Origin: an uncultured Flavobacteriaceae bacterium
Lineage (GTDB): Bacteria; Bacteroidota; Bacteroidia; Flavobacteriales; Weeksellaceae
Reading direction: 5' to 3'
Assembly: GCA_963539275.1 (NCBI GenBank)
Contig: CAUTLL010000001.1
Location: forward strand, 1-34,558
DNA: 34,558 nt
The position numbers and the translations under genes were made by a program. Below the pieces are notes generated by a model. The model saw nothing but the letters and a program-made list of their open reading frames with translations. It was not told the origin of the DNA and searched no databases. Shown here piece by piece: positions 2,998 to 34,486 of the stretch (positions are counted from its first letter, which is position 1; every line of letters begins with the position of its first letter).

Positions 2998-3098
2998 AAA
3001 AAAGGCAAGCTATCTACATCACACCGCTACGACCGATTACCTTTGCTGTGTTCCCACCCTGGAGGATTTTCAGGAGCTGGTTGTGTAGGACTTGCCAC
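2998..3098 (-). ncRNA. ffs: signal recognition particle RNA (small bacterial 4.5S type)
   Basis: A GC-enriched island of about 100 nt in an AT-rich spacer. The minus strand forms a long hairpin, GGCAAG...CUUGCC plus a U6 tail. Its apex reads AGG-GUG-GGAA-CAC-AGCA (plus 3044..3060). That aligns position for position with E. coli 4.5S domain IV, AGG-UCC-GGAA-GGA-AGCA, with a compensatory stem change. A TATATTTG box lies just upstream. The ends are good to about 5 nt. Confidence 0.8.
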
Positions 3099-3100
3099 TG

Positions 3101-3108
3101 CAAATATA
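3101..3108 (-). promoter_or_regulatory. Bacteroidota -7 promoter box (TATATTTG) for the SRP RNA
   Basis: Exact TAnnTTTG match on the minus strand, a few nt upstream of the 5' arm of the SRP hairpin. Confidence 0.55.
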
Positions 3109-6698: not shown

Positions 6699-8873
6699 TT
6701 AAAATTTATAATTTACTTGTACGGCAAAGTTTCTTGGGTCTGTCCTATTGATAAATCCACCTCTGTAATAAGCACTGTATCCGATAGAATTGCCGAGATT
6801 ATTTGCAAATATTTTAATTTCGATATTTTTATATATATAGCCTATCTGAGCATTGATAGTAGTATATGCATTAAAATCAAAATATTTAGTAGCGTCAGTA
6901 TTATGGATAATATTAGCTTTTAATACATGGTCATTAGATGGCCTTTTACCTACATAATAGATACCTCCTCCGAAGTTTAATCCTTTTAGAGTACCATTGC
7001 GGAAGGTGTAATTTACCCAGCCGTTTGCAGTGTGTTTGGCAGTCATAATAGGTGCAGAACCATCTACATAACTAGGGCTATCTTTGTATTGGGCATCTAA
7101 ATAAGAGTATCCTGCCATGATTTCTAATTCAGGAAGAATTTTCCCTACTAATTCAGCCTCTACTCCTTTTCTTTTTAAATTACCTGCTAATCCGTAGAAA
7201 GGCGTTTTATTTCCAGCTGTATCTGTAATTATATAAGAAAGATTATTAAGATTCATTTTGAAGAAATTAATATTAAATTTTAATTTTTCATCGAACCAAT
7301 CTGTCTTTATCCCTGTTTCCCATTGCTTAGTTTTAGAAGGACCAACAGTGCCTCCATGTTCCAGAGGTTTATTATTATCTCTTAAATCAGTAGAAGTAGT
7401 GTAGGAGAAATATAAATTAATATTTTTAATAGGGGACATTATTATCCCAACAGATGGGTCCCAAGCATATTTTCTCCCTTTTTGAGAGTTTCCGTTAAAT
7501 TTACTATATCTAATACCTCCTGATAGTTTTACATATTCTGTGAACTCCAAAACTTCTTGTGCCATGACACCTATGGTAGGAGTTGCAGGGTTAATGATGC
7601 TTCCTGTTTTTGTAATGGTATTTACTTGATTTAATTGTGTAGGAGTTAGGATGTTAGTAAAATCTTCTATAGTGTTTATTACATCTATATCTATATCTTT
7701 GGAGTAGGTATAAGTTTCTGTTTGAGATTGTCGCCAATCAAAACCTACTTGAAAAGTGTGTTTTAAGATTCCTGTTTTAATATCATGTCCTATAAAATCT
7801 ACTTGAAATACCTTGCTCAAATCTTTACCACCACTTTTTCCTACGGTTCTTTTTCTCATTGCATAATTGATATTATCTTTACCGATAGTGTTGAGCTTGC
7901 CAGTGGCGAGGGATTCATTTTCATTGTCCATTGCCATATAAGCTGCACGGATTTTCAATTTATCGGATAATTTTCTATCGGCAGAAATCATATAACTATA
8001 AGAAATTTCCTCAGTTCTATCAGACTTAAAACCGAAGAATTTTTCTTTGACATCATAAATAGCATAAATGCCGTTATTTGCTAGATTGATAGTCCCTCTA
8101 TTTGGAGTTCTTTCATTGTTAAGGTAATCCATTTGCAAGATGAATTCTGTTTTATCATCTGGGCGGAAGGCTACGGATGGATTTATATAAATACGCTCAC
8201 CTTTTACATGATTTGTGAAAGAATGATTTTTTTGGTAAGCTACATTGAGACGAACAGCGACTTTTCCATTTTTATCTAAAACTCTTTGAAAATCTAATGT
8301 AGGACGGAAAGTATCCCAATTTCCATAGCGAAAGCCAATATTAGTAGTATTGATGAATTTTGGAGTTTTTGTAATAATATTAATGACTCCTCCTGGTGAG
8401 CCTAATGAGTTTGTAACACCTTGAGTAATAGCTGCTACTCCACGGATAACCTGAATGCTCTCAACTCCTTGCATATCAGCAATCATAGAACTTCTTCTAA
8501 AATCAGAGTTCATCAAAACTCCATTTTTTAAGGTTGGAGTTCCTCTATATCCTCTAATGGACATACTTTCTGAACCTCCTCCATAATTACTGAATAGCAC
8601 TACGCCTGGAATGTTTCTTGCAGCTTCTGTGATGGTTAGAGCTCCCATTTCAGAGATAGCCTTATGAGAAATTATGGAAATATTTTGTACTTGTTCTTGT
8701 GGGCTTAAAGGTAGGCGGGTAATGATTTCTAAGCCTTTGGGCTGTTTTTTGCTTTCGCCGAAAAGCTCTATTTCTTCAATATCAGATACTTTATTTATAG
8801 AATCTTTTTTTACTTGAGCATTGATATGAACGATGCCTGAAAGGGCAAACGCTCCAATGATTAGTTTATTCAT
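6699..8873 (-). CDS. TonB-dependent outer-membrane receptor (siderophore/metal type)
   Basis: 724 aa with a signal peptide. The plug domain is (ITRLP..., IQVIRGVAAITQG), followed by a long beta-barrel and a C-terminal aromatic residue (..VNYKF). Confidence 0.9.
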   Translation of the reverse strand: MNKLIIGAFALSGIVHINAQVKKDSINKVSDIEEIELFGESKKQPKGLEIITRLPLSPQEQVQNISIISHKAISEMGALTITEAARNIPGVVLFSNYGGGSESMSIRGYRGTPTLKNGVLMNSDFRRSSMIADMQGVESIQVIRGVAAITQGVTNSLGSPGGVINIITKTPKFINTTNIGFRYGNWDTFRPTLDFQRVLDKNGKVAVRLNVAYQKNHSFTNHVKGERIYINPSVAFRPDDKTEFILQMDYLNNERTPNRGTINLANNGIYAIYDVKEKFFGFKSDRTEEISYSYMISADRKLSDKLKIRAAYMAMDNENESLATGKLNTIGKDNINYAMRKRTVGKSGGKDLSKVFQVDFIGHDIKTGILKHTFQVGFDWRQSQTETYTYSKDIDIDVINTIEDFTNILTPTQLNQVNTITKTGSIINPATPTIGVMAQEVLEFTEYVKLSGGIRYSKFNGNSQKGRKYAWDPSVGIIMSPIKNINLYFSYTTSTDLRDNNKPLEHGGTVGPSKTKQWETGIKTDWFDEKLKFNINFFKMNLNNLSYIITDTAGNKTPFYGLAGNLKRKGVEAELVGKILPELEIMAGYSYLDAQYKDSPSYVDGSAPIMTAKHTANGWVNYTFRNGTLKGLNFGGGIYYVGKRPSNDHVLKANIIHNTDATKYFDFNAYTTINAQIGYIYKNIEIKIFANNLGNSIGYSAYYRGGFINRTDPRNFAVQVNYKF

Positions 8874-8991
8874 AATGATTTTAATGTAAATTAAATTTTT
8901 GCAAATATATTATTTTTATTTATTCTAAATAACGCTTGGTTTAAATTTTTTATTGATAAAGATATTTTCATAAGGGATAAATTCAAAGTTT

Positions 8992-9936
8992 TTGTATATT
9001 GTGAACAAATTTTTAGCTTTGAGTGTAATACTTACAATTTTAGGATATAATTCAGCGATACCCACTATAAAATCAGCTCCTACTGCTCAATTTTTAGAAA
9101 TGAGCGAAAGAAATTTTTTGATAGATTGTGGAGAAGGGACTCAAGTACAACTCCGAAGAGCGAAAGCGAAATTTTCTAAAATTAATCATATTTTTATTTC
9201 GCATTTGCATGGCGACCATTGTTTTGGACTGCCGGGTTTGGTTTCTTCCTTTCAGTTGTTAGGAAGGGAGACCCCCTTGCATATTTATGGCCCAAAAGGA
9301 ATAAAGGAGTTAATGGAAGTTATATTAAAATTGACAGAAACGAATAAGGGGTTTGATTTGATTTTTCATGAATTAGAATCCAAAAAATCTGAACTTATTT
9401 TTGAAGATAATAGAGTGGAGGTTCATACAATTCCTTTGAAGCACAGAATTTATTGTAATGGATATTTATTTAAGGAAAAGCCTAAATCTCGGCATCTTAA
9501 TATGCAGGAAATAAAAAAATATCCAGAGATAGAAATTTGTGATTATCAAAATATCAAAAATGGAAAAGATTTTATCTTAAAAGACGGGTATATTATTAAT
9601 AATGAGATTCTTACATTGCCGCCAGAGGCATCGGTTTCTTATGCCTTTTGTAGCGATACACAATATTCAGAATCTATTGTTCCTATTATACAAGGAGTGG
9701 ATTTGCTCTATCATGAGGCAACTTTTTTAGATGAAATGAAGGATTTAGTGAAATATACGGGACATTCTACGGCATTAGAAGCTGCAAAAATTGCTCAAAA
9801 AGCAAAGGTTAAAAAACTAATTTTAGGTCATTTTTCTAACCGCTATTCTGATTATACCGAATTTGAGCAAGAAGCGAGGACTATTTTTGAGAATACTTTT
9901 GTTCCAGAAATTTTGAAACCGATAAAAATTGGTTAA
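8992..9936 (+). CDS. rnz: ribonuclease Z (tRNA 3' endonuclease, MBL fold)
   Basis: Motifs LIDCGEGTQ and HLHGDH, with the C-terminal LILGHFSNRY. The start is uncertain: the track gives TTG 8992, while TTG 9019 (LSVILTILGYNS) would give a more typical N-terminus. Confidence 0.85.
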   Translation: MYIVNKFLALSVILTILGYNSAIPTIKSAPTAQFLEMSERNFLIDCGEGTQVQLRRAKAKFSKINHIFISHLHGDHCFGLPGLVSSFQLLGRETPLHIYGPKGIKELMEVILKLTETNKGFDLIFHELESKKSELIFEDNRVEVHTIPLKHRIYCNGYLFKEKPKSRHLNMQEIKKYPEIEICDYQNIKNGKDFILKDGYIINNEILTLPPEASVSYAFCSDTQYSESIVPIIQGVDLLYHEATFLDEMKDLVKYTGHSTALEAAKIAQKAKVKKLILGHFSNRYSDYTEFEQEARTIFENTFVPEILKPIKIG

Positions 9937-19448: not shown

Positions 19449-19520
19449 AGACCCATGGTGTAATTGGTAACACACCTGATTTTGGTTCAGTCATTCGGGG
19501 TTCGAGTCCCTGTGGGTCTA
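19449..19520 (+). tRNA. tRNA-Gln (anticodon UUG)
   Basis: Folded by hand. The acceptor stem AGACCCA/TGGGTCT is 7 bp and U8 and A14 are present. The D stem is GTGT/ACAC. The anticodon stem is CCTGA/TCAGT with loop TT-TTG-GT. The T arm is CGGGG-TTCGAGT-CCCTG and the discriminator is A. No CCA is encoded. Confidence 0.9.
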
Positions 19521-19750
19521 CAAAATGGCCAATTAAGGCACAAGAAATTAACAAACAGCTTATTTTAAACGGTTTATAGAAGTTTAATTAAGTTGTTTTT
19601 TGTTTTATATGACACCGAAAAAGACACAGAGCTATTTTTTTAGTGTCATATTTTGCAAAAGGCATCTTCAAAATATTGAATTGAAGCATGTTAGAGCAAT
19701 TTCATTCCGTAGAAAATTTACAGGCACTCTCTAAAAAGATATATGTGCCT

Positions 19751-20866
19751 ATGAATGTAAGATTTTATTTAAAAAATTATCTCAACAAAGAGGGAAAATC
19801 CCAAGTTTACCTTAGTATATCTTCTGAAGGTAAGAGAGATAGACTTCCATTGGATGTTTTTGTGCGACCAGAGAACTGGGATAAAACGAAACAAAGAGCA
19901 AAAGTAAAGACCGAGAATAGCGATACGATTAATCTTATTTTAGATCAAGCATTTGCTAAGATTTCTGATATCCGAGTGCATTATCGCTTATCTAAAATAC
20001 ATCTTTCAAGAGAAAAATTGATAGAGGAATTTCAGAATAAAACTCCCAATTATGATTTTATTTCTTTTATGAAATATCATACTGATAATTTAATATTAAA
20101 ACCTAATTCTTATAGAAAACATCAATGCGAGATAGGAAAATTATCGGAGTATAAGAAGTTTATTCCTTTTTCAGAAATAACATTGGAGTTTATTAATAAT
20201 TATAGAGGATATTTATCCAAAATTAAAAAGAATGCTCCGACAACCATAGCCTCATCAATAAAAATTATCTTGAAATTTTTGAAGATAGCAAAAAAGTATG
20301 GAGTATTTCTAAATGTAGATCTATCGGATATTAAACCTGGAAGTACCAAAGGCAATAGAATCAATCTCACGATAGAGGAAGTAGATCGGTTAAAATCTTA
20401 TTATGATAGCGGATTTATAAAGCCACATCATCGCTTAGCATTAGGATATTTTTTATTTTCTTGTTATACATCTTTGCGGATTTCAGATATTAAGAAATTG
20501 AAAAGAGAGGATTTGGGAGGCAATACCATCACTTATTTAAGTACTAAAACCAATCATAATCATACCCTTATCATCAATAAAACAGCGAAAAAAATTCTTA
20601 ATGAAAATGAAGATTTATTTATAAAATGGGTAAGTGATCAGAAAATAAATCAGGCATTGAAAGAAATAGCGAGTATTTGTAGCATAAAGAAAAAAGTACA
20701 TTTCCATGTTGCGAGGCATTCTTTTGCGACCAATTTTCTCCGCAAAGGAGGTAAAATAGAAGACTTGCAAACTATTATGGATCATAGCGATATTCAGACT
20801 ACCATGGTCTATGTTCACATCGTAAAAGCAGAGAGTATGCAGAGCATGTATCTAATGGATGATTAA
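19751..20866 (+). CDS. site-specific tyrosine recombinase / phage integrase (Bacteroidota type with an N-terminal arm-binding domain)
   Basis: The C-terminal catalytic signature is ..LRISD.., HVARHSFAT, ..DLQTIMDHSDIQTTMVYVH (R..H-x-x-R..H..Y). The N-terminus MNVRFYLK.. is typical. The track start 19688 is an upstream alternative. Confidence 0.9.
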   Translation: MNVRFYLKNYLNKEGKSQVYLSISSEGKRDRLPLDVFVRPENWDKTKQRAKVKTENSDTINLILDQAFAKISDIRVHYRLSKIHLSREKLIEEFQNKTPNYDFISFMKYHTDNLILKPNSYRKHQCEIGKLSEYKKFIPFSEITLEFINNYRGYLSKIKKNAPTTIASSIKIILKFLKIAKKYGVFLNVDLSDIKPGSTKGNRINLTIEEVDRLKSYYDSGFIKPHHRLALGYFLFSCYTSLRISDIKKLKREDLGGNTITYLSTKTNHNHTLIINKTAKKILNENEDLFIKWVSDQKINQALKEIASICSIKKKVHFHVARHSFATNFLRKGGKIEDLQTIMDHSDIQTTMVYVHIVKAESMQSMYLMDD

Positions 20867-20909: not shown

Positions 20910-21149
20910 TTAGGATAAATTATTGATGAGTAGCCCAGTTTCTTCGGGGTAATATTCTAGGATAAATGAGAGCCTTAAAGAGAGTGAGACCACTTCTTTT
21001 AGGATAGTTTTTTCTCTTTCTGTGATATTCCCAAAGTTAGGCAAATGCTCTGTTTCTATTTCATAGAGAGTTTTTTGGACATCATTGTCTTTGAATAGCT
21101 CCATTTGGCAACTGAACCACCAGCTGAAATCGTCATTGAATTTTTCCAT
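20910..21149 (-). CDS. acidic 79-aa phage protein, proximal copy of a duplicated gene
   Basis: The ORF is translationally coupled to the upstream gene by a TAATG overlap. It is near-identical to residues 1-77 of ORF 32407..32700. Confidence 0.7.
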   Translation of the reverse strand: MEKFNDDFSWWFSCQMELFKDNDVQKTLYEIETEHLPNFGNITEREKTILKEVVSLSLRLSFILEYYPEETGLLINNLS

Positions 21150-21419
21150 TACGCATCATATTTTTGGTGAAACAATCTGAGCATATTCTTGTAAGCCTGA
21201 GGGAAAGAACTGCCCCATGCATGGGCTCTTTGTGTAGGAGAGATGAAAGCCACCTTGTAGATTCCTTTATCACAGCTCATCTGGAGATGCCCACCATACA
21301 GCCTTGCAAATGCCAGTGGCTCTATGAGTTTTTCTTCTCTTTTGAATAAACTTCTTAAACTCTCTAAAAGTGTAACTTTTCTGCTTTGCACCGCATTACT
21401 ATTCTTCGTGCGTGGTGCT
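20912..21419. repeat. long direct repeat, copy 1 (partner at 32463..32970, offset 11551 bp)
   Basis: Compared by eye, there are 5 mismatches, all within 20912-20988. Positions 20989-21419 (431 bp) appear identical to 32540-32970. Confidence 0.9.
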
Positions 21420-21439
21420 TTGGTTTGATTGTTAAGCAT
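21149..21439 (-). CDS. basic 96-aa phage protein, proximal copy of a duplicated gene
   Basis: The ORF starts MLNNQTKAPRTKNSNAVQSRKV... The track start TTG 21448 is probably spurious. ATG 21439 corresponds to the ATG of the distal copy. The two proteins are identical from residue 8 onward to ORF 32700..32990. Confidence 0.7.
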   Translation of the reverse strand: MLNNQTKAPRTKNSNAVQSRKVTLLESLRSLFKREEKLIEPLAFARLYGGHLQMSCDKGIYKVAFISPTQRAHAWGSSFPQAYKNMLRLFHQKYDA

Positions 21440-21607
21440 ATTAATCAATTAAAAATTTATTTCCCAAATACAAAAAACCCCGTTAGGAGGTGCTTAACAA
21501 TCATTTAGGGAAACGATTTGTGTAGCCTCTCGACTACACCCTCCTTCAGGGTTATAATATAAACAAATAAAAAAGTTTTCTAGGGATTTTCCCTAAACAT
21601 TGTTAAG
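21440..21607 (-). promoter_or_regulatory. structured 5' leader or cis-antisense RNA with a terminator-like end, proximal version
   Basis: Three segments on the minus strand define it: A at 21610..21588, anti-segment B at 21513..21490, and start region C at 21439..21422. B pairs with either A or C. The long-range helix CCC-UGAA-GGAGG / CCUCC-UAAC-GGGG is followed by U6 (P at 21551..21539, P' at 21490..21478). An inner hairpin capped by GAGA lies at 21539..21520. The TSS is not determinable from sequence. Confidence 0.55.
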
Positions 21608-21612
21608 CATTG

Positions 21613-21620
21613 CAAATATA
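21613..21620 (-). promoter_or_regulatory. -7 promoter box (TATATTTG) driving the proximal leader and gene pair
   Basis: Exact TAnnTTTG match directly after a terminator. The 23-nt context TGCAAATATA[A/G]GAATAAAAAAAT is shared with 33141..33163. Confidence 0.55.
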
Positions 21621-31682: not shown

Positions 31683-32158
31683 TTTGTAAAATATGAAAGA
31701 TTAAAAAATAATTCTTCACCAAATCGCTCGGCTCTGACTTTCCCGATGTTCTCCGCCACAAACTCCACTACACCGCTGTCTTTTATGGCTTGGGATATGA
31801 AGGGTGTGGCTTTCATTTTGAAATAATGTCCTCCATAGTGATAGGTAATGCTTCTCGGTGAGTTTCTTGTCCTATCGCCACCTTTTCTGATGGTATCTAC
31901 ACCATAATGCTGTACGAAGCCATGCCTTGGCATTCTGATGGCTAAACTCCGCATGAAAACATGTTGGTTGCCTTCCTTTTTCTTGCCGTATTCTTTGAAA
32001 CTTGCCTTTGCTTCTGCTTCTTTCAGAGATTTGTCATTATCTTTTTTGTGATAATGCTCTTGAAAACTTTGGGTTCTGTTTCTCAGGGCAGAAGTGAGCA
32101 TCTGCTCGGCTTTCTTGGCGATGGATAGTTCTTCTCTATATTCCATTGTTTTTCTCAT
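31679..32158 (-). CDS. 159-aa phage protein, possibly a virion morphogenesis or head-tail joining component (weak HK97 gp10-like C-terminal pattern)
   Basis: The region HGFVQHYGV...MKATPFISQAI resembles the ..FVEFGT...A.PFLRPA.. pattern of gp10-type proteins. This is a low-confidence family guess. Confidence 0.6.
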   Translation of the reverse strand: MRKTMEYREELSIAKKAEQMLTSALRNRTQSFQEHYHKKDNDKSLKEAEAKASFKEYGKKKEGNQHVFMRSLAIRMPRHGFVQHYGVDTIRKGGDRTRNSPRSITYHYGGHYFKMKATPFISQAIKDSGVVEFVAENIGKVRAERFGEELFFNLSYFTK

Positions 32159-32456
32159 AGACCACCCACTTGAATACTCTACCTGTCTCTATTTTTTCGT
32201 ATTCAGGAGGGAGATTCTTTTCTTTATCTCCCTCAAAAATACAAATTTTATCGTAAAGTATTTCTAATTCTTGCCGAAAATTAAGCTCCTTCATCACTTC
32301 ATAAATATCATGCTCACCGATGGGCTCATTGGGGATAATCCCTTGCATCATCGTTAAGATAGACTGCGTGGTGAGTAGCCTTTTTTCTTCTTTGGAGCCT
32401 ACCTGGTTATAATACCTCAGGAATAGCTCCTTGATGATTTCCTTGTAATCTTCCAT
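32136..32456 (-). CDS. 106-aa hypothetical phage protein
   Basis: An ATG ORF in the operon, overlapping the downstream ORF by 23 nt. Confidence 0.65.
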   Translation of the reverse strand: MEDYKEIIKELFLRYYNQVGSKEEKRLLTTQSILTMMQGIIPNEPIGEHDIYEVMKELNFRQELEILYDKICIFEGDKEKNLPPEYEKIETGRVFKWVVYEKNNGI

Positions 32457-32700
32457 AGTATGAGGATATATTATTGATGAGTAGCCCAGCTTCTTCGGGG
32501 TAATATTTTAGGATAAATGAGAGCCTTAAAGAGAGCGAAACCACTTCTTTTAGGATAGTTTTTTCTCTTTCTGTGATATTCCCAAAGTTAGGCAAATGCT
32601 CTGTTTCTATTTCATAGAGAGTTTTTTGGACATCATTGTCTTTGAATAGCTCCATTTGGCAACTGAACCACCAGCTGAAATCGTCATTGAATTTTTCCAT
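32407..32700 (-). CDS. acidic 97-aa phage protein, distal copy of the duplicated gene with an 18-aa C-terminal extension
   Basis: Same as 20910..21149, except that the stop TAA is replaced by TCA. The frame therefore runs 50 nt into the next gene. Confidence 0.65.
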   Translation of the reverse strand: MEKFNDDFSWWFSCQMELFKDNDVQKTLYEIETEHLPNFGNITEREKTILKEVVSLSLRLSFILKYYPEEAGLLINNISSYYGRLQGNHQGAIPEVL

Positions 32701-32970
32701 TACGCATCATATTTTTGGTGAAACAATCTGAGCATATTCTTGTAAGCCTGAGGGAAAGAACTGCCCCATGCATGGGCTCTTTGTGTAGGAGAGATGAAAG
32801 CCACCTTGTAGATTCCTTTATCACAGCTCATCTGGAGATGCCCACCATACAGCCTTGCAAATGCCAGTGGCTCTATGAGTTTTTCTTCTCTTTTGAATAA
32901 ACTTCTTAAACTCTCTAAAAGTGTAACTTTTCTGCTTTGCACCGCATTACTATTCTTCGTGCGTGGTGCT
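32463..32970. repeat. long direct repeat, copy 2 (partner at 20912..21419)
   Basis: See copy 1. Confidence 0.9.
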
Positions 32971-32990
32971 GGTTTGATGATGTTTAGCAT
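32700..32990 (-). CDS. basic 96-aa phage protein, distal copy of the duplicated gene
   Basis: The ORF starts MLNIIKPAPRTKNSNAVQSRKV... It is coupled to the next gene by a TAATG overlap. Confidence 0.7.
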   Translation of the reverse strand: MLNIIKPAPRTKNSNAVQSRKVTLLESLRSLFKREEKLIEPLAFARLYGGHLQMSCDKGIYKVAFISPTQRAHAWGSSFPQAYKNMLRLFHQKYDA

Positions 32991-33137
32991 TTTATATTAA
33001 TTAAAAATAAAAAATCCCCGATAATGTGGATTGTCGCTAAACATCATCAATCAGAAAAAGATTAATAACCACACTTCACGGGGAAGACTTTTATTTCGTT
33101 AAAATTATATCAGATTATTTCTGATGATGATATTTAG
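32991..33137 (-). promoter_or_regulatory. structured 5' leader or cis-antisense RNA with a terminator-like end, distal version
   Basis: Three segments on the minus strand define it: A at 33140..33121, anti-segment B at 33054..33035, and start region C at 32990..32969. The long-range helix CCCCG-UGAAG-UGUGG / CCACA-UUAU-CGGGG (33084..33069 / 33029..33016) is followed by AUUUUUUAUUUUU. The architecture matches 21440..21607 but the sequence differs. Confidence 0.55.
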
Positions 33138-33142
33138 CACTG

Positions 33143-33150
33143 CAAATATA
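33143..33150 (-). promoter_or_regulatory. -7 promoter box (TATATTTG) driving the distal leader and tail-side operon
   Basis: Exact TAnnTTTG match directly after a strong terminator. Confidence 0.55.
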
Positions 33151-33154
33151 GGAA

Positions 33155-33190
33155 TAAAAAAATAACCACCAAATAAAAAGGTGGTTATTT
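33155..33190 (-). terminator. intrinsic terminator after the 75-aa membrane-protein gene
   Basis: Perfect 10-bp stem AATAACCACC/GGTGGTTATT with a 9-nt loop, followed by a T-run on the minus strand. It begins right after the stop codon. Confidence 0.85.
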
Positions 33191-33418
33191 TTAATATGGT
33201 CTATAAAAATCAAAATTACTCAATAATATGATGACAGCTATAGTTAGAAAGATAAAGTCTTTTATCTGTAATCCATACCATTCTCTATCGGTATGGAAAA
33301 ATTTTATTTTTCCTATCGTAGCATCCATGAGCATATATAAAATACCTACTCCGAAAATAAATGCACTAATGACTGATATGAGATTTAATAAAAACATTTT
33401 TTCATTTCTATAGTGCAA
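33191..33418 (-). CDS. 75-aa two-TM membrane protein
   Basis: Two hydrophobic helices are present (LLNLISVISAFIFGVGILYML and IFLTIAVIILLSNF). The ORF starts 10 nt after the 352-aa ORF. Confidence 0.65.
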   Translation of the reverse strand: MHYRNEKMFLLNLISVISAFIFGVGILYMLMDATIGKIKFFHTDREWYGLQIKDFIFLTIAVIILLSNFDFYRPY

Positions 33419-33427
33419 ATTTATAAA

Positions 33428-34486
33428 TTATTTTGGTATATCTTTATTTGTGTCGAATTGTTTCAGGATTTTTATCATATCATCAGGATTTTTGATATTC
33501 AAACTATCTTTAGAATGATTAAAAATTTCTCTTTTCATACTTCTATTTTCTTGTTTATCAAGAAAATCAGATATAGCCTCTATTAAAGGTTTTACTCCCT
33601 CTGTTTTTATAGAACTTCCATCGTGAGATGTATATCCTCCCCCAACAATAGTTAAGACTATTCCTGCGAATAAAGTAGTCTTTTTAATGGAAGATTTAAG
33701 ATCTATTTTACCAGGGCTATTAAGATTTATTTTTATTTCAAAATCATCAGAAGAAATTCCATTCAAATTTAAATGCCCTGCAATTTCATCTATTAGTTCT
33801 AAAAGATTATATCCTAGACTAAATAAATCTTTTGCTTTTATATCATGTCTTGATTGGACATTAATAATGAAATGAGCCTCCTCTCCTAAAATGAAGAAAT
33901 CTTGTAAACTTCTTTCTATGACATCTGCATATTTGCTGACATTAGTAATCGCTTGATGAGAAGTAAACATCTTAAATAAATTAGGATCTAATGATTTTTT
34001 AGGAAAATCTTGTATCCATTCTACTCGTTTATTTAAAAATTGGTTTTCATATTCAAAATTTCTTCTTTCTTCATCGGAAAACTCTGCAACAGAAGATTCT
34101 TGAACTATTCCAAAAGAAACAAATTCTGAATTAGAAGATGGTATAATTACAATATCTCCCTTTTTAACTTCTTCATAAAAACTTGAAATTTGTCCTGCAA
34201 TTAATCCTATTTGTTGTTTAGTTCTAGTACACTCTCCGTTTTCAGTATAAAATTCTGTTACTAAATCTTTTATATTAGACAATCTTCTATTAGTCTCTGT
34301 GAAGGTGTTTTTTATAGAAGCTAAATTCCTTAAAGAAACCTCTGTATGTCCGAGTCCTACAAAATTATTTTCTACAAAGACTTCATATAAAGTTCCTGAT
34401 TGAGTTCTTATCAGCCAATATTTCTTATCACTAGGAATTTTATCTATACTATTTACTAAATTATCTAAAATTTCATTATAATCCAT
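33428..34486 (-). CDS. 352-aa hypothetical protein; the N-terminal about 140 aa show a PUA/EVE-like sequence pattern (weak) and there is one hydrophobic segment near residue 275
   Basis: A long, clean ATG ORF in a visibly more AT-rich stretch. The N-terminal pattern is KKYWLIRTQSG..FVGLGH...VKKGDIVIIPS...FVSFGIVQE. It has its own promoter box and shares a terminator with the 75-aa ORF. Confidence 0.75.
   Translation of the reverse strand: MDYNEILDNLVNSIDKIPSDKKYWLIRTQSGTLYEVFVENNFVGLGHTEVSLRNLASIKNTFTETNRRLSNIKDLVTEFYTENGECTRTKQQIGLIAGQISSFYEEVKKGDIVIIPSSNSEFVSFGIVQESSVAEFSDEERRNFEYENQFLNKRVEWIQDFPKKSLDPNLFKMFTSHQAITNVSKYADVIERSLQDFFILGEEAHFIINVQSRHDIKAKDLFSLGYNLLELIDEIAGHLNLNGISSDDFEIKINLNSPGKIDLKSSIKKTTLFAGIVLTIVGGGYTSHDGSSIKTEGVKPLIEAISDFLDKQENRSMKREIFNHSKDSLNIKNPDDMIKILKQFDTNKDIPK

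Follow-up and report, generated by a model that had tools for sequence, protein, structure and literature searches.

A candidate leader-encoded riboregulator with covarying specificity segments in temperate Bacteroidota phages

A stretch of 34,558 nt from an uncultured Flavobacteriaceae bacterium (contig CAUTLL010000001.1 of assembly GCA_963539275.1, positions 1–34,558, hereafter the window) carries a prophage in which a leader precedes a minus-strand operon of small genes, beginning with gene 1 and gene 2, and tail genes. Three segments of this leader are related in sequence: A at its 5′ end, B in the loop of a terminator hairpin, and C at the start codon of gene 1, with B complementary to both A and C. 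The leader is predicted to work as an attenuator, with A:B as the antiterminator, combined with a translational lock formed by B:C. The most probable reading of the whole element (roughly 60%) is a leader-encoded riboregulator of temperate Bacteroidota phages that unites the attenuator and the lock with a small RNA acting in trans. Its biological role, we infer, is the silencing of the operon of gene 1, gene 2 and the tail genes.

The initial annotation of the window had described A, B and C as a three-way RNA switch nested in a terminator-like helix, and re-reading of the sequence gave the same coordinates and the same mutual complementarity. The duplex drawn there between B and C, from the G of the AUG through codon 6, is a perfect inverted repeat of 15 nt (32974–32988 with 33036–33050). 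The A:B duplex was likewise reproduced, with 13 of 14 positions matched (33125–33138 with 33036–33049) and 18 bp formed if one bulge and one G·U pair are allowed. B lies inside the long-range helix exactly as described, followed by the U-tract AUUUUUUAUUUUU and by 12 nt of A and U that lead to the AUG of gene 1 (32990). A simple terminator scanner missed this hairpin because it was limited to loops of at most 8 nt. The 14-nt core GCTAAAYATCATCA occurs at exactly three sites in the 34.5-kb window, namely A, B and C, and no further target of B was found in the window or in 20 kb of L022, a near-identical prophage. None of 1000 dinucleotide shuffles of 32800–33300 (501 nt) contained a perfect inverted repeat of more than 13 nt, compared with the 15 nt observed, and the 181-nt leader stretch folds with a z-score of −3.6.

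The three segments stand in the order A-B-C on one strand, 3′ of one promoter, and this order is kept in the 18 leaders and the about 50 metagenomic sequences described below. TTTG and TAnnTTTG form the Bacteroidota promoter consensus, which is matched in the window by TTTG, 19 nt and TATATTTG (PMC7366714). A stem containing G and C with a U-tract lies upstream of an open reading frame, and no promoter separates the two, which is the layout of an attenuator. A and the terminator's 5′ arm are separated by a 37-nt A/U-rich spacer. The distal part of A may form a short weak hairpin (P0) in which UCUGAU mimics the 5′ end of B; this hairpin recurs in most leaders, yet its stability does not exceed that of shuffled sequences. 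The features of the window are collected in table 1.

Table 1. Positions of the two cassettes and of neighboring features in the window
Feature	Position	Strand	Basis or remark
Hairpin and T-run closing the upstream cargo unit	33158..33192	-	13-nt perfect arms; 3′ half holds the -33 TTTG
-33 TTTG of leader promoter	33173-33170	-	19 nt upstream of the TATATTTG box
-7 promoter box TATATTTG (TAnnTTTG)	33143..33150	-	box 2–5 nt upstream of A in 18/18 leaders and 46 metagenomic sequences
Segment A, 5′-terminal decoy and antiterminator arm, GUGCUAAAUAUCAUCAUCAG	33121..33140	-	A:B duplex -29.2 kcal/mol; covariation
P0, distal A (AUCAGA) with UCUGAU	33109..33125	-	tentative
Terminator stem 5′ arm, CCCCG-UGAAG-UGUGG (P1 CCCCG, internal loop, P2 UGUGG)	33069..33083	-	covariation in subfamily I
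Segment B, anti-segment, CUGAUUGAUGAUGUUUAGCG	33035..33054	-	in 39-nt loop of terminator hairpin
Terminator stem 3′ arm, CCACA-UUAU-CGGGG	33016..33029	-	covariation in subfamily I
U-tract AUUUUUUAUUUUU	33003..33015	-	predicted 3′ end of leader RNA of ~125–135 nt
Segment C, start codon and codons 2–7 of gene 1, AUGCUAAACAUCAUCAAACCAG	32969..32990	-	B-paired part 32989-32974; B:C -24.3 kcal/mol
Gene 1, 96 aa	32700..32990	-	no Pfam, PHROG, NCBIfam or PDB sequence match
Gene 2, 97 aa	32407..32700	-	translationally abuts gene 1; pair conserved
Second complete cassette, subfamily II, different specificity	21426..21620	-	match to covariance model R1; leader identical to L025
Cassette 2 box TATATTTG	21620-21613	-	
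Cassette 2 segment A2 AUGCUUAACAAUGUUUAGGGAAA	21610-21588	-	
Cassette 2 segment B2 UUUCCCUAAAUGAUUGUUAAGCAC	21513-21490	-	in P1/P2/P3 core, followed by U-tract
Cassette 2 segment C2 AUGCUUAACAAUCA	21439-21426	-	from AUG at 21439
Second gene 1 copy	21439-21149	-	within 20910..21439
Second gene 2 copy, 79-aa form	21149-20910	-	ends beside the convergent integrase
Integrase	19688-20866	convergent with second gene 1/gene 2 copies	prophage integrated beside tRNA-Gln
tRNA-Gln(UUG)	19449-19521	+	adjoins integrase
Bacteroidales-type small signal recognition particle RNA	2999-3104	-	Rfam search of window

The strongest evidence comes from homologous leaders. Contigs were taken for close homologues of gene 1 (29) and for a distant homologue (one), and together with four IMG/VR phage contigs they yielded 18 distinct leaders. 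Scans seeded with single distant homologues returned four IMG/VR loci and otherwise nothing; protein-seeded scans of IMG/VR and the JGI metagenomes with gene 1 or its close alignment returned nothing, and a blastn search of the INPHARED phage collection gave no match. Every one of the 18 leaders has the TAnnTTTG box, A 2–5 nt further on, a hairpin with a U-tract that contains B, and C at the start codon. From one leader to another the three segments vary in sequence yet change together, giving about 16 different A/B/C sequences (e.g., A GUGCAAACACAAGAGCU, B AGCUCUUGUGUUUGCAC and C AUGCAAACACAAG in L001; A GUGCUUAAUCAAGUGCU, B AGCACUUGAUUAAGCA and C AUGCUUAAUCAAGUG in L021; A GUGCAACAUUAAACAAUCAGA, B UCUGAUUGUUUGGUGUUGCA and C AUGCAACAUCAAACAA in L032). 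The mean energy of C:B is −19.2 kcal/mol for cognate and −9.6 kcal/mol for non-cognate pairs, and that of A:B is −29.1 versus −14.1 kcal/mol. In an alignment whose register was set by maximising pairing (A2), 92.6% of the A/B/C cells are paired and both sides have changed in 24 out of 28 pairs, compared with 36–45% paired cells when the partners are slid by 1–3 columns; as the sequences are related by descent, such cell counts overstate the number of independent events. The terminator stem of the structural subfamily that includes the window (subfamily I) has changed on both sides in 8 out of 13 pairs, with 90% of cells paired versus 38–50% when slid. A, B and C covary in every homologous leader recovered, and the terminator stem covaries as well, which supports the three-way switch within a terminator. 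The initial annotation had named the loss of A/B/C complementarity in homologues as grounds for refutation; the opposite was found, and the complementarity is kept.

Closely related leaders differ mainly where the segments pair. Of 212 aligned positions, L002 and L025 disagree at 8, and seven of these fall at corresponding sites of A, B and C (CUUAAC in place of UUCAAC for A and C, GUUAAG in place of GUUGAA for B). L032 and L033 are separated by 22 differences, every one of which is found in the A region, within or beside B, in C, or as a compensatory change in P2. Five natural cassettes (L004, L011, L035, L102 and L144) carry an A or a B unlike the other two elements and are apparent recombinants. 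L004 combines an A of one type with B and C of another, B and C but not A have changed in L011, and both leaders are predicted to be locked in the terminator fold at equilibrium. As a separate observation, an 11-mer (UGUUUGACGAC) identical to the 3′ part of the B segment of L027 lies at 1008–1030 of that locus, at the end of the upstream HicB-like open reading frame and on the same strand; this copy may be due to chance or a relic of another cassette.

Two structural subfamilies of the cassette were distinguished: subfamily I, represented by the first cassette of the window, and subfamily II, which has an extra hairpin (P3). A metagenome collection was searched with P3 alone, giving at least 120 loci; the counts in this and the next paragraph refer to the matches listed. 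Genuine members, with a TACCTTTG-type box and the P1/P2 context, number about 76. Among the 81 that have a promoter box, A:B and B:C are both matched at 11/12 or better in 39; in 12 others B:C is accompanied by an A that is bulged or mismatched; 24 have A:B without a matching C, and six have neither pairing. A search up to 4 kb downstream found no C in 20 of the 24 members with A:B only. B matches the translation start of the first gene in 51 out of the 81, and in all leaders of gene 1 homologues.

A MAFFT alignment of 46 metagenomic sequences (A6) was assembled by selection on B:C while A:B was left unused. The A:B pairing is nonetheless present in 96.6% of the cells, with 9 of 14 pairs changed on both sides. 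The values for B:C (99.6%, 9 of 12 pairs) are biased by the selection. The corresponding values for the stems are 99.6% and 3 of 6 pairs in P1, 99.1% and 1 of 5 in P2, and 100% and 1 of 7 in P3, and 28 distinct B cores occur in the 46 sequences. Overall, more than 40 A/B/C specificity types were identified. In this metagenomic clade, the first downstream gene shows no relationship to gene 1 or gene 2 of the window, indicating that the conserved entity is the RNA cassette, and C is written into the first codons of whichever gene follows. The first 13 residues of gene 1 are disordered in the AlphaFold model, which fits a C segment that can be written into the start of any gene. The covariance model of subfamily II does not recognize the subfamily I core in the window, so the two hairpin architectures are not demonstrably homologous, though interchangeable in position.

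Two-part cassettes, consisting of A:B and the terminator with no C within 4 kb, form a group of their own (L042, L046, L068, L076, L077, L083, L091–L093, L096, L108, L114, L117, L119, L126, L129, L132, L146 and L149). B is variable in those that precede genes beginning MKTENTNP..., and one B is common to all eight copies that precede gene-3-like genes beginning MNDYKEILK....

The predicted folds support the view that A:B and the terminator compete. When the leader alone is folded, A:B forms with a probability of 0.74 or more in the equilibrium ensemble of 14 out of 18 leaders, and the outer stem with one of about 0; masking of A raises the outer stem to about 0.9. The A:B helix crosses the P1/P2 helices, and B is only 4 nt from the 3′ arm of the terminator. 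A 4-nt linker cannot span an 18-bp helix in a pseudoknot, so the A:B fold and the terminator fold are mutually exclusive. The 12–45 nt from the U-tract to the AUG are A/U-rich and carry no promoter box, and gene 1 must therefore be transcribed by read-through only. Taken together, the need for read-through and the exclusive folds point to A:B as an antiterminator, and the suggestion of an attenuator combined with a translational switch, one of two offered in the initial annotation, fits these results. Transcription would start from a consensus sigma-A-type promoter at, or a few nucleotides from, segment A. In the OFF fold, the P1/P2 hairpin (with P3 in the second subfamily) would form and display B in its loop, transcription would end at the U-tract, and a small RNA of about 125–135 nt would be freed. 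In the ON fold, A would pair with B over 17–27 bp, the terminator stem would be excluded and the polymerase would read into gene 1, whose start codon would be free since B is occupied.

This design recalls riboswitch expression platforms, T-box leaders and trp-type attenuators, in which a 5′ segment competes with the 5′ arm of a terminator for a shared 3′ partner and the folds exclude each other. Unlike these, the leader in the window has no aptamer, tRNA-binding or conserved leader-peptide element, its competing helix is hypervariable, and its anti-segment also targets a start codon. A leader peptide might still set the switch if A opened a short leaderless frame whose translation selects the terminator or the antiterminator. 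The A segment of the window does begin with GUG and an 11-codon frame (MLNIIIRNNLI*), and 14 of the 18 leaders have an A that opens with AUG or GUG. However, the remaining four (L009, L020, L033 and L034) have neither, the frames range in length from 5 codons to read-through of the whole leader, and the AUG or GUG is explained by A copying C. This scarcely credible idea was rejected, the open reading frame in A being not conserved.

A promoter terminated just upstream of late genes is also found in lambda and Stx phages, where the PR′-tR′ region gives rise to a short RNA (6S/StxS; PMC7547250). An arrangement of this type would be constitutive and terminated in the lysogen until a phage protein antiterminates after induction, and the leader RNA would be a by-product such as 6S or StxS. 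The StxS precedent and the position of a consensus promoter right before a terminator, heading an operon that continues into the tape-measure and tail genes, speak for such an arrangement. It nevertheless appears improbable: antitermination in the phage systems depends on the Q protein and their RNA lacks a self-complementary design of decoy and target, no Q-like protein was identified here, A:B antitermination at the RNA level suffices alone, and the arrangement would leave unexplained the hypervariability, the mutual copying of A and C, and the covariation of both with B.

The second part of the proposed device concerns translation. Bacteroidota mRNAs lack a Shine-Dalgarno sequence and depend instead on a start region that is A-rich and unstructured (PMC7366714). 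A duplex of 12–16 bp over the AUG and codons 2–6 should block initiation. Whenever A is unavailable, B would settle on C, from the U of the AUG to codon 5–6, and initiation on the Shine-Dalgarno-less mRNA would be blocked. In cis and with the terminator formed, B:C is a pseudoknot between a loop and a downstream segment, a structure that RNAfold cannot score, so its stability is underestimated.

The matching segments might in principle act as DNA, either as operators or, for A and B, as inverted repeats bounding an invertible terminator segment. A and B are indeed inverted repeats 75–95 bp apart, and invertible promoters between inverted repeats are common in Bacteroidales. The mismatches are, however, strand-asymmetric. 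G·U pairs on the sense strand outnumber the alternative among transition mismatches by 17 to 6 in the set of gene 1 homologues, and by 30 to 7 in A:B and 37 to 2 in P1–P3 of the metagenomic set. DNA-level repeats would show no strand bias, which points to pairing as RNA. In addition, recombinase or repressor sites should stay conserved with their protein and not be hypervariable in close relatives, all of the about 76 metagenomic members among the matches listed have one orientation, the first downstream genes belong to unrelated families and provide no linked covarying protein partner, and B sits within a covarying RNA hairpin with a U-tract. A DNA-level function is thus very improbable, and the inversion and operator readings were both rejected on the G·U strand bias, the single orientation and the hypervariable repeats.

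A second complete cassette within the same prophage bears on the third part of the reading, the action in trans. The covariance model of subfamily II (R1) matches the minus strand at 21463–21554 with 33.9 bits and a rough E-value of 3.6e-6, as all E-values from covariance models are rough. The two copies of the genes are identical from nt +20 to +450 after the ATG, and identity thus starts immediately after C. The two cassettes are orthogonal, with cross duplexes of −10 to −13.5 kcal/mol versus −17.8 to −31 kcal/mol for cognate ones. Two metagenome contigs also carry two leaders each on the same strand and with different specificities: ODJT01000053.1 at 10,703 and 47,512 (L086 and L041, 37 kb apart) and ODVX01000444.1 at 7,427 and 29,673 (L129 and L083, 22 kb apart). 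Co-resident cassettes hence differ in specificity in all three available cases, including the window. As a side observation, a perfect direct repeat of 431 nt (32540–32970 and 20989–21419; about 510 nt if a few mismatches are allowed) begins right behind C in each copy of gene 1, and its two copies enclose the tail module in full. Recombination between them would lead to the loss of the tail genes and would give the order leader, gene 1, 79-aa gene 2, integrase, as in L011 and L029.

A device that works only in cis gains nothing by a change of its code; the clustering of differences in A, B and C, the more than 40 codes and the differing co-residents therefore favor a role in trans. The diversifying pattern and the orthogonal co-resident copies provide indirect support for a putative trans-acting small RNA. 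The terminated RNA would behave like the CI RNA of P4 and the c4 RNA of P1/P7: nascent transcripts of the same specificity would have their A segment captured by its B loop, leading to termination, and the loop would also capture C and block translation. The sequence of A, B and C would then be a determinant of specificity or immunity that diversifies under selection. We hold more tentatively, at slightly worse than even odds, the wider proposal that the more than 40 codes are mutually orthogonal trans-acting leader RNAs of temperate Bacteroidota phages that serve as RNA "immunity addresses," each silencing only cassettes of its own code, first through the 5′ antiterminator and then through the start codon, so that one prophage can hold two before identical genes.

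An unlikely alternative, which still deserves serious weight, is that all pairings form within one transcript and the released leader RNA has no function of its own, the switch being set by polymerase speed, temperature, an RNA-binding protein of phage or host, or the gene 1 protein. All structural evidence fits such a cis-only attenuator and translational switch equally well. The equilibrium fold of a leader that retains A sequesters B and argues against free activity in trans, members with A:B only show that the attenuator core can stand alone, and gene 1 has a weak similarity to the double-stranded RNA-binding domain (dsRBD) fold. The cis-only device gives no reason, however, for the clustering of differences between near-identical relatives in A, B and C or for more than 40 specificities, it leaves unexplained that co-resident cassettes are always different and orthogonal, and no ligand- or protein-binding domain is apparent.

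Several points weigh against the riboregulator with a trans-acting RNA. The favored fold of a terminated RNA that keeps A hides B, so activity as a repressor in trans would require that the RNA be kinetically trapped, processed at its 5′ end or started internally; L034 alone has a TAnnTTTG-like box just ahead of P1. The transcription start, the 3′ end and any processing are predicted from consensus motifs only. The mismatched natural cassettes mean that mismatch is tolerated, at least transiently, and 22 family members that have A:B and the terminator, with C absent over 4 kb, make the translational lock optional. The register chosen to maximise pairing, the shared descent of the sequences and the selection of A6 on B:C temper the covariation counts. 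Finally, the term "immunity" is applied to this system by analogy.

In function and layout the closest known systems are those of phages P4 and P1/P7, and the leader is not a member of their RNA families. The initial annotation had pointed to the c4 RNA of P1/P7, an apt comparison, and the seqA/CI/seqC system of P4 is closer still. In P4, the CI RNA (seqB) pairs with seqA upstream and seqC downstream and causes transcription termination (PMC4825925, PMC3632133). The P4 system (Rfam IsrK RF01394, C4 RF01695) shares with the window an antisense RNA encoded on the same strand in the leader of its own operon, one segment (seqB, here B) complementary to an upstream (seqA, here A) and a downstream copy (seqC, here C), premature transcription termination as the output, and relatives with different covarying specificities. 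It differs in its host (Proteobacteria instead of Bacteroidota) and in that RNase P and PNPase excise the CI RNA, whose action is at separate terminators, whereas the leader of the window has its own intrinsic terminator with A:B as its cis antiterminator. Furthermore, C overlaps a start codon, the regulated genes are not replication genes, and the leader has no similarity in sequence or structure to the C4 and IsrK models. The P4 immunity RNA was reportedly treated by Sabbattini in 1995 and Briani in 2000.

In P1, c4 controls icd-ant (PMC8201110). The immI region of P1 and P7 (c4-icd-ant) resembles the cassette in that the RNA precedes its target on a common transcript, complementary sites flank it on both sides, the one downstream overlaps the translation initiation region of the first gene and has a polar effect on those that follow, and covarying RNA and target sequences differ between P1 and P7. 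The cassette would mask the AUG and codons 2–6 of a Shine-Dalgarno-less mRNA with a single 12–27-nt segment displayed in a terminator loop. By contrast, c4 is a tRNA-like RNA processed by RNase P that uses two short loop sequences (a′ and b′) and masks a Shine-Dalgarno sequence. The genes under c4 control encode a cell-division inhibitor (Icd) and an antirepressor (Ant/KilA/Bro); behind the leader of the window, searches of genes 1–4 against Pfam, PHROG and NCBIfam found no Icd- or Ant-like protein, and there is no Rfam C4 match. The P1/P7 c4 RNA is said to have been described by Citron and Schuster in 1990.

The initial annotation knew of no named RNA family with this layout, in agreement with the Rfam search, which found no matching family, C4 and IsrK included, at the gathering threshold in the window or in 12 representative loci; up to E = 10 nothing real, neither C4 nor IsrK, was found over 32900–33250. 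No description of such an element in Bacteroidota was found in the literature. To our knowledge, no phage immunity based on RNA has been described beyond enterobacterial elements (P4 with CI, P1/P7 with c4), and we are aware of very little on riboregulation in Bacteroidota. How small RNAs control Shine-Dalgarno-less mRNAs has been called an open question (PMC7366714). The cassette offers a concrete and testable design, in which an anti-segment in a terminator loop covers the AUG and the first codons and is coupled to a 5′ antiterminator. Its natural variation is a ready-made series of compensatory mutations, and for synthetic biology in gut and oral Bacteroidota it is also a library of orthogonal regulators. 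In terms of annotation, the cassette defines an RNA family missing from Rfam. If the wider proposal of orthogonal immunity addresses is true, this would be the first RNA-based immunity or incompatibility system outside the Proteobacteria and a general answer to the repression of translation by small RNAs in a phylum without Shine-Dalgarno pairing.

The genes behind the leader offer few clues to function. Genes 1–4 have no match in Pfam, PHROG or NCBIfam, and a PDB sequence search with them was empty. The gene 1 protein family is small (28 clusters), with a strikingly variable N-terminus on a conserved body: residues 1–13 are variable and predicted to be disordered, and the part behind them runs from a conserved helix through three strands to another helix. 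The AlphaFold2 model (pLDDT 80) has the alpha-beta-beta-beta-alpha topology of a dsRBD, and Foldseek returned only weak dsRBD-like matches (best E 0.07 in PDB and 0.008 in BFVD, TM about 0.4–0.5), a weak hint of a dsRBD-like fold in the model. The cassette explains the hypervariable N-termini of the first gene and the miscalled open reading frames that start in A. Where A opens with an in-frame ATG, gene callers and open reading frame lists place the start within A or at a TTG further upstream, and the spurious long products from such starts include 139 aa in L030 (223–642, protein P0031) and 99 aa in the window (21149–21448). Gene 2 (32407–32700) and gene 3 (32136–32456) overlap by 50 nt on the minus strand, and the second copy of gene 2 stops at residue 79, just short of the overlap; a programmed frameshift or an alternative C-terminus is possible at this site.

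The window is part of a Bacteroidota chromosome, and the sole related genome record found is a metagenome-assembled genome of the Flavobacteriaceae. The prophage probably used the tRNA-Gln gene, which marks its left end, as its attachment site, and its phage genes run in the minus-strand direction. Downstream of the leader follow gene 1 (96 aa), gene 2 (97 aa), two more small genes, a membrane protein, a tape-measure protein of 1366 aa and tail genes. In L022 the same series from gene 1 to the tape-measure gene stands 3′ of the leader, which itself lies after head genes, a GH108 lysin and a cargo block (HicA, NYN, BRCT). The junction between the hairpin that ends the cargo unit and the leader promoter is also kept in L001 and L004. 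The cargo just upstream of the promoter varies between otherwise identical prophages: the window carries a 352-aa phrog_10226 protein and a 75-aa membrane open reading frame (33191–34486), and L022 carries HicA, a HicB-like protein, NYN and BRCT (7386–9815). The site looks like a hot spot for moron insertion.

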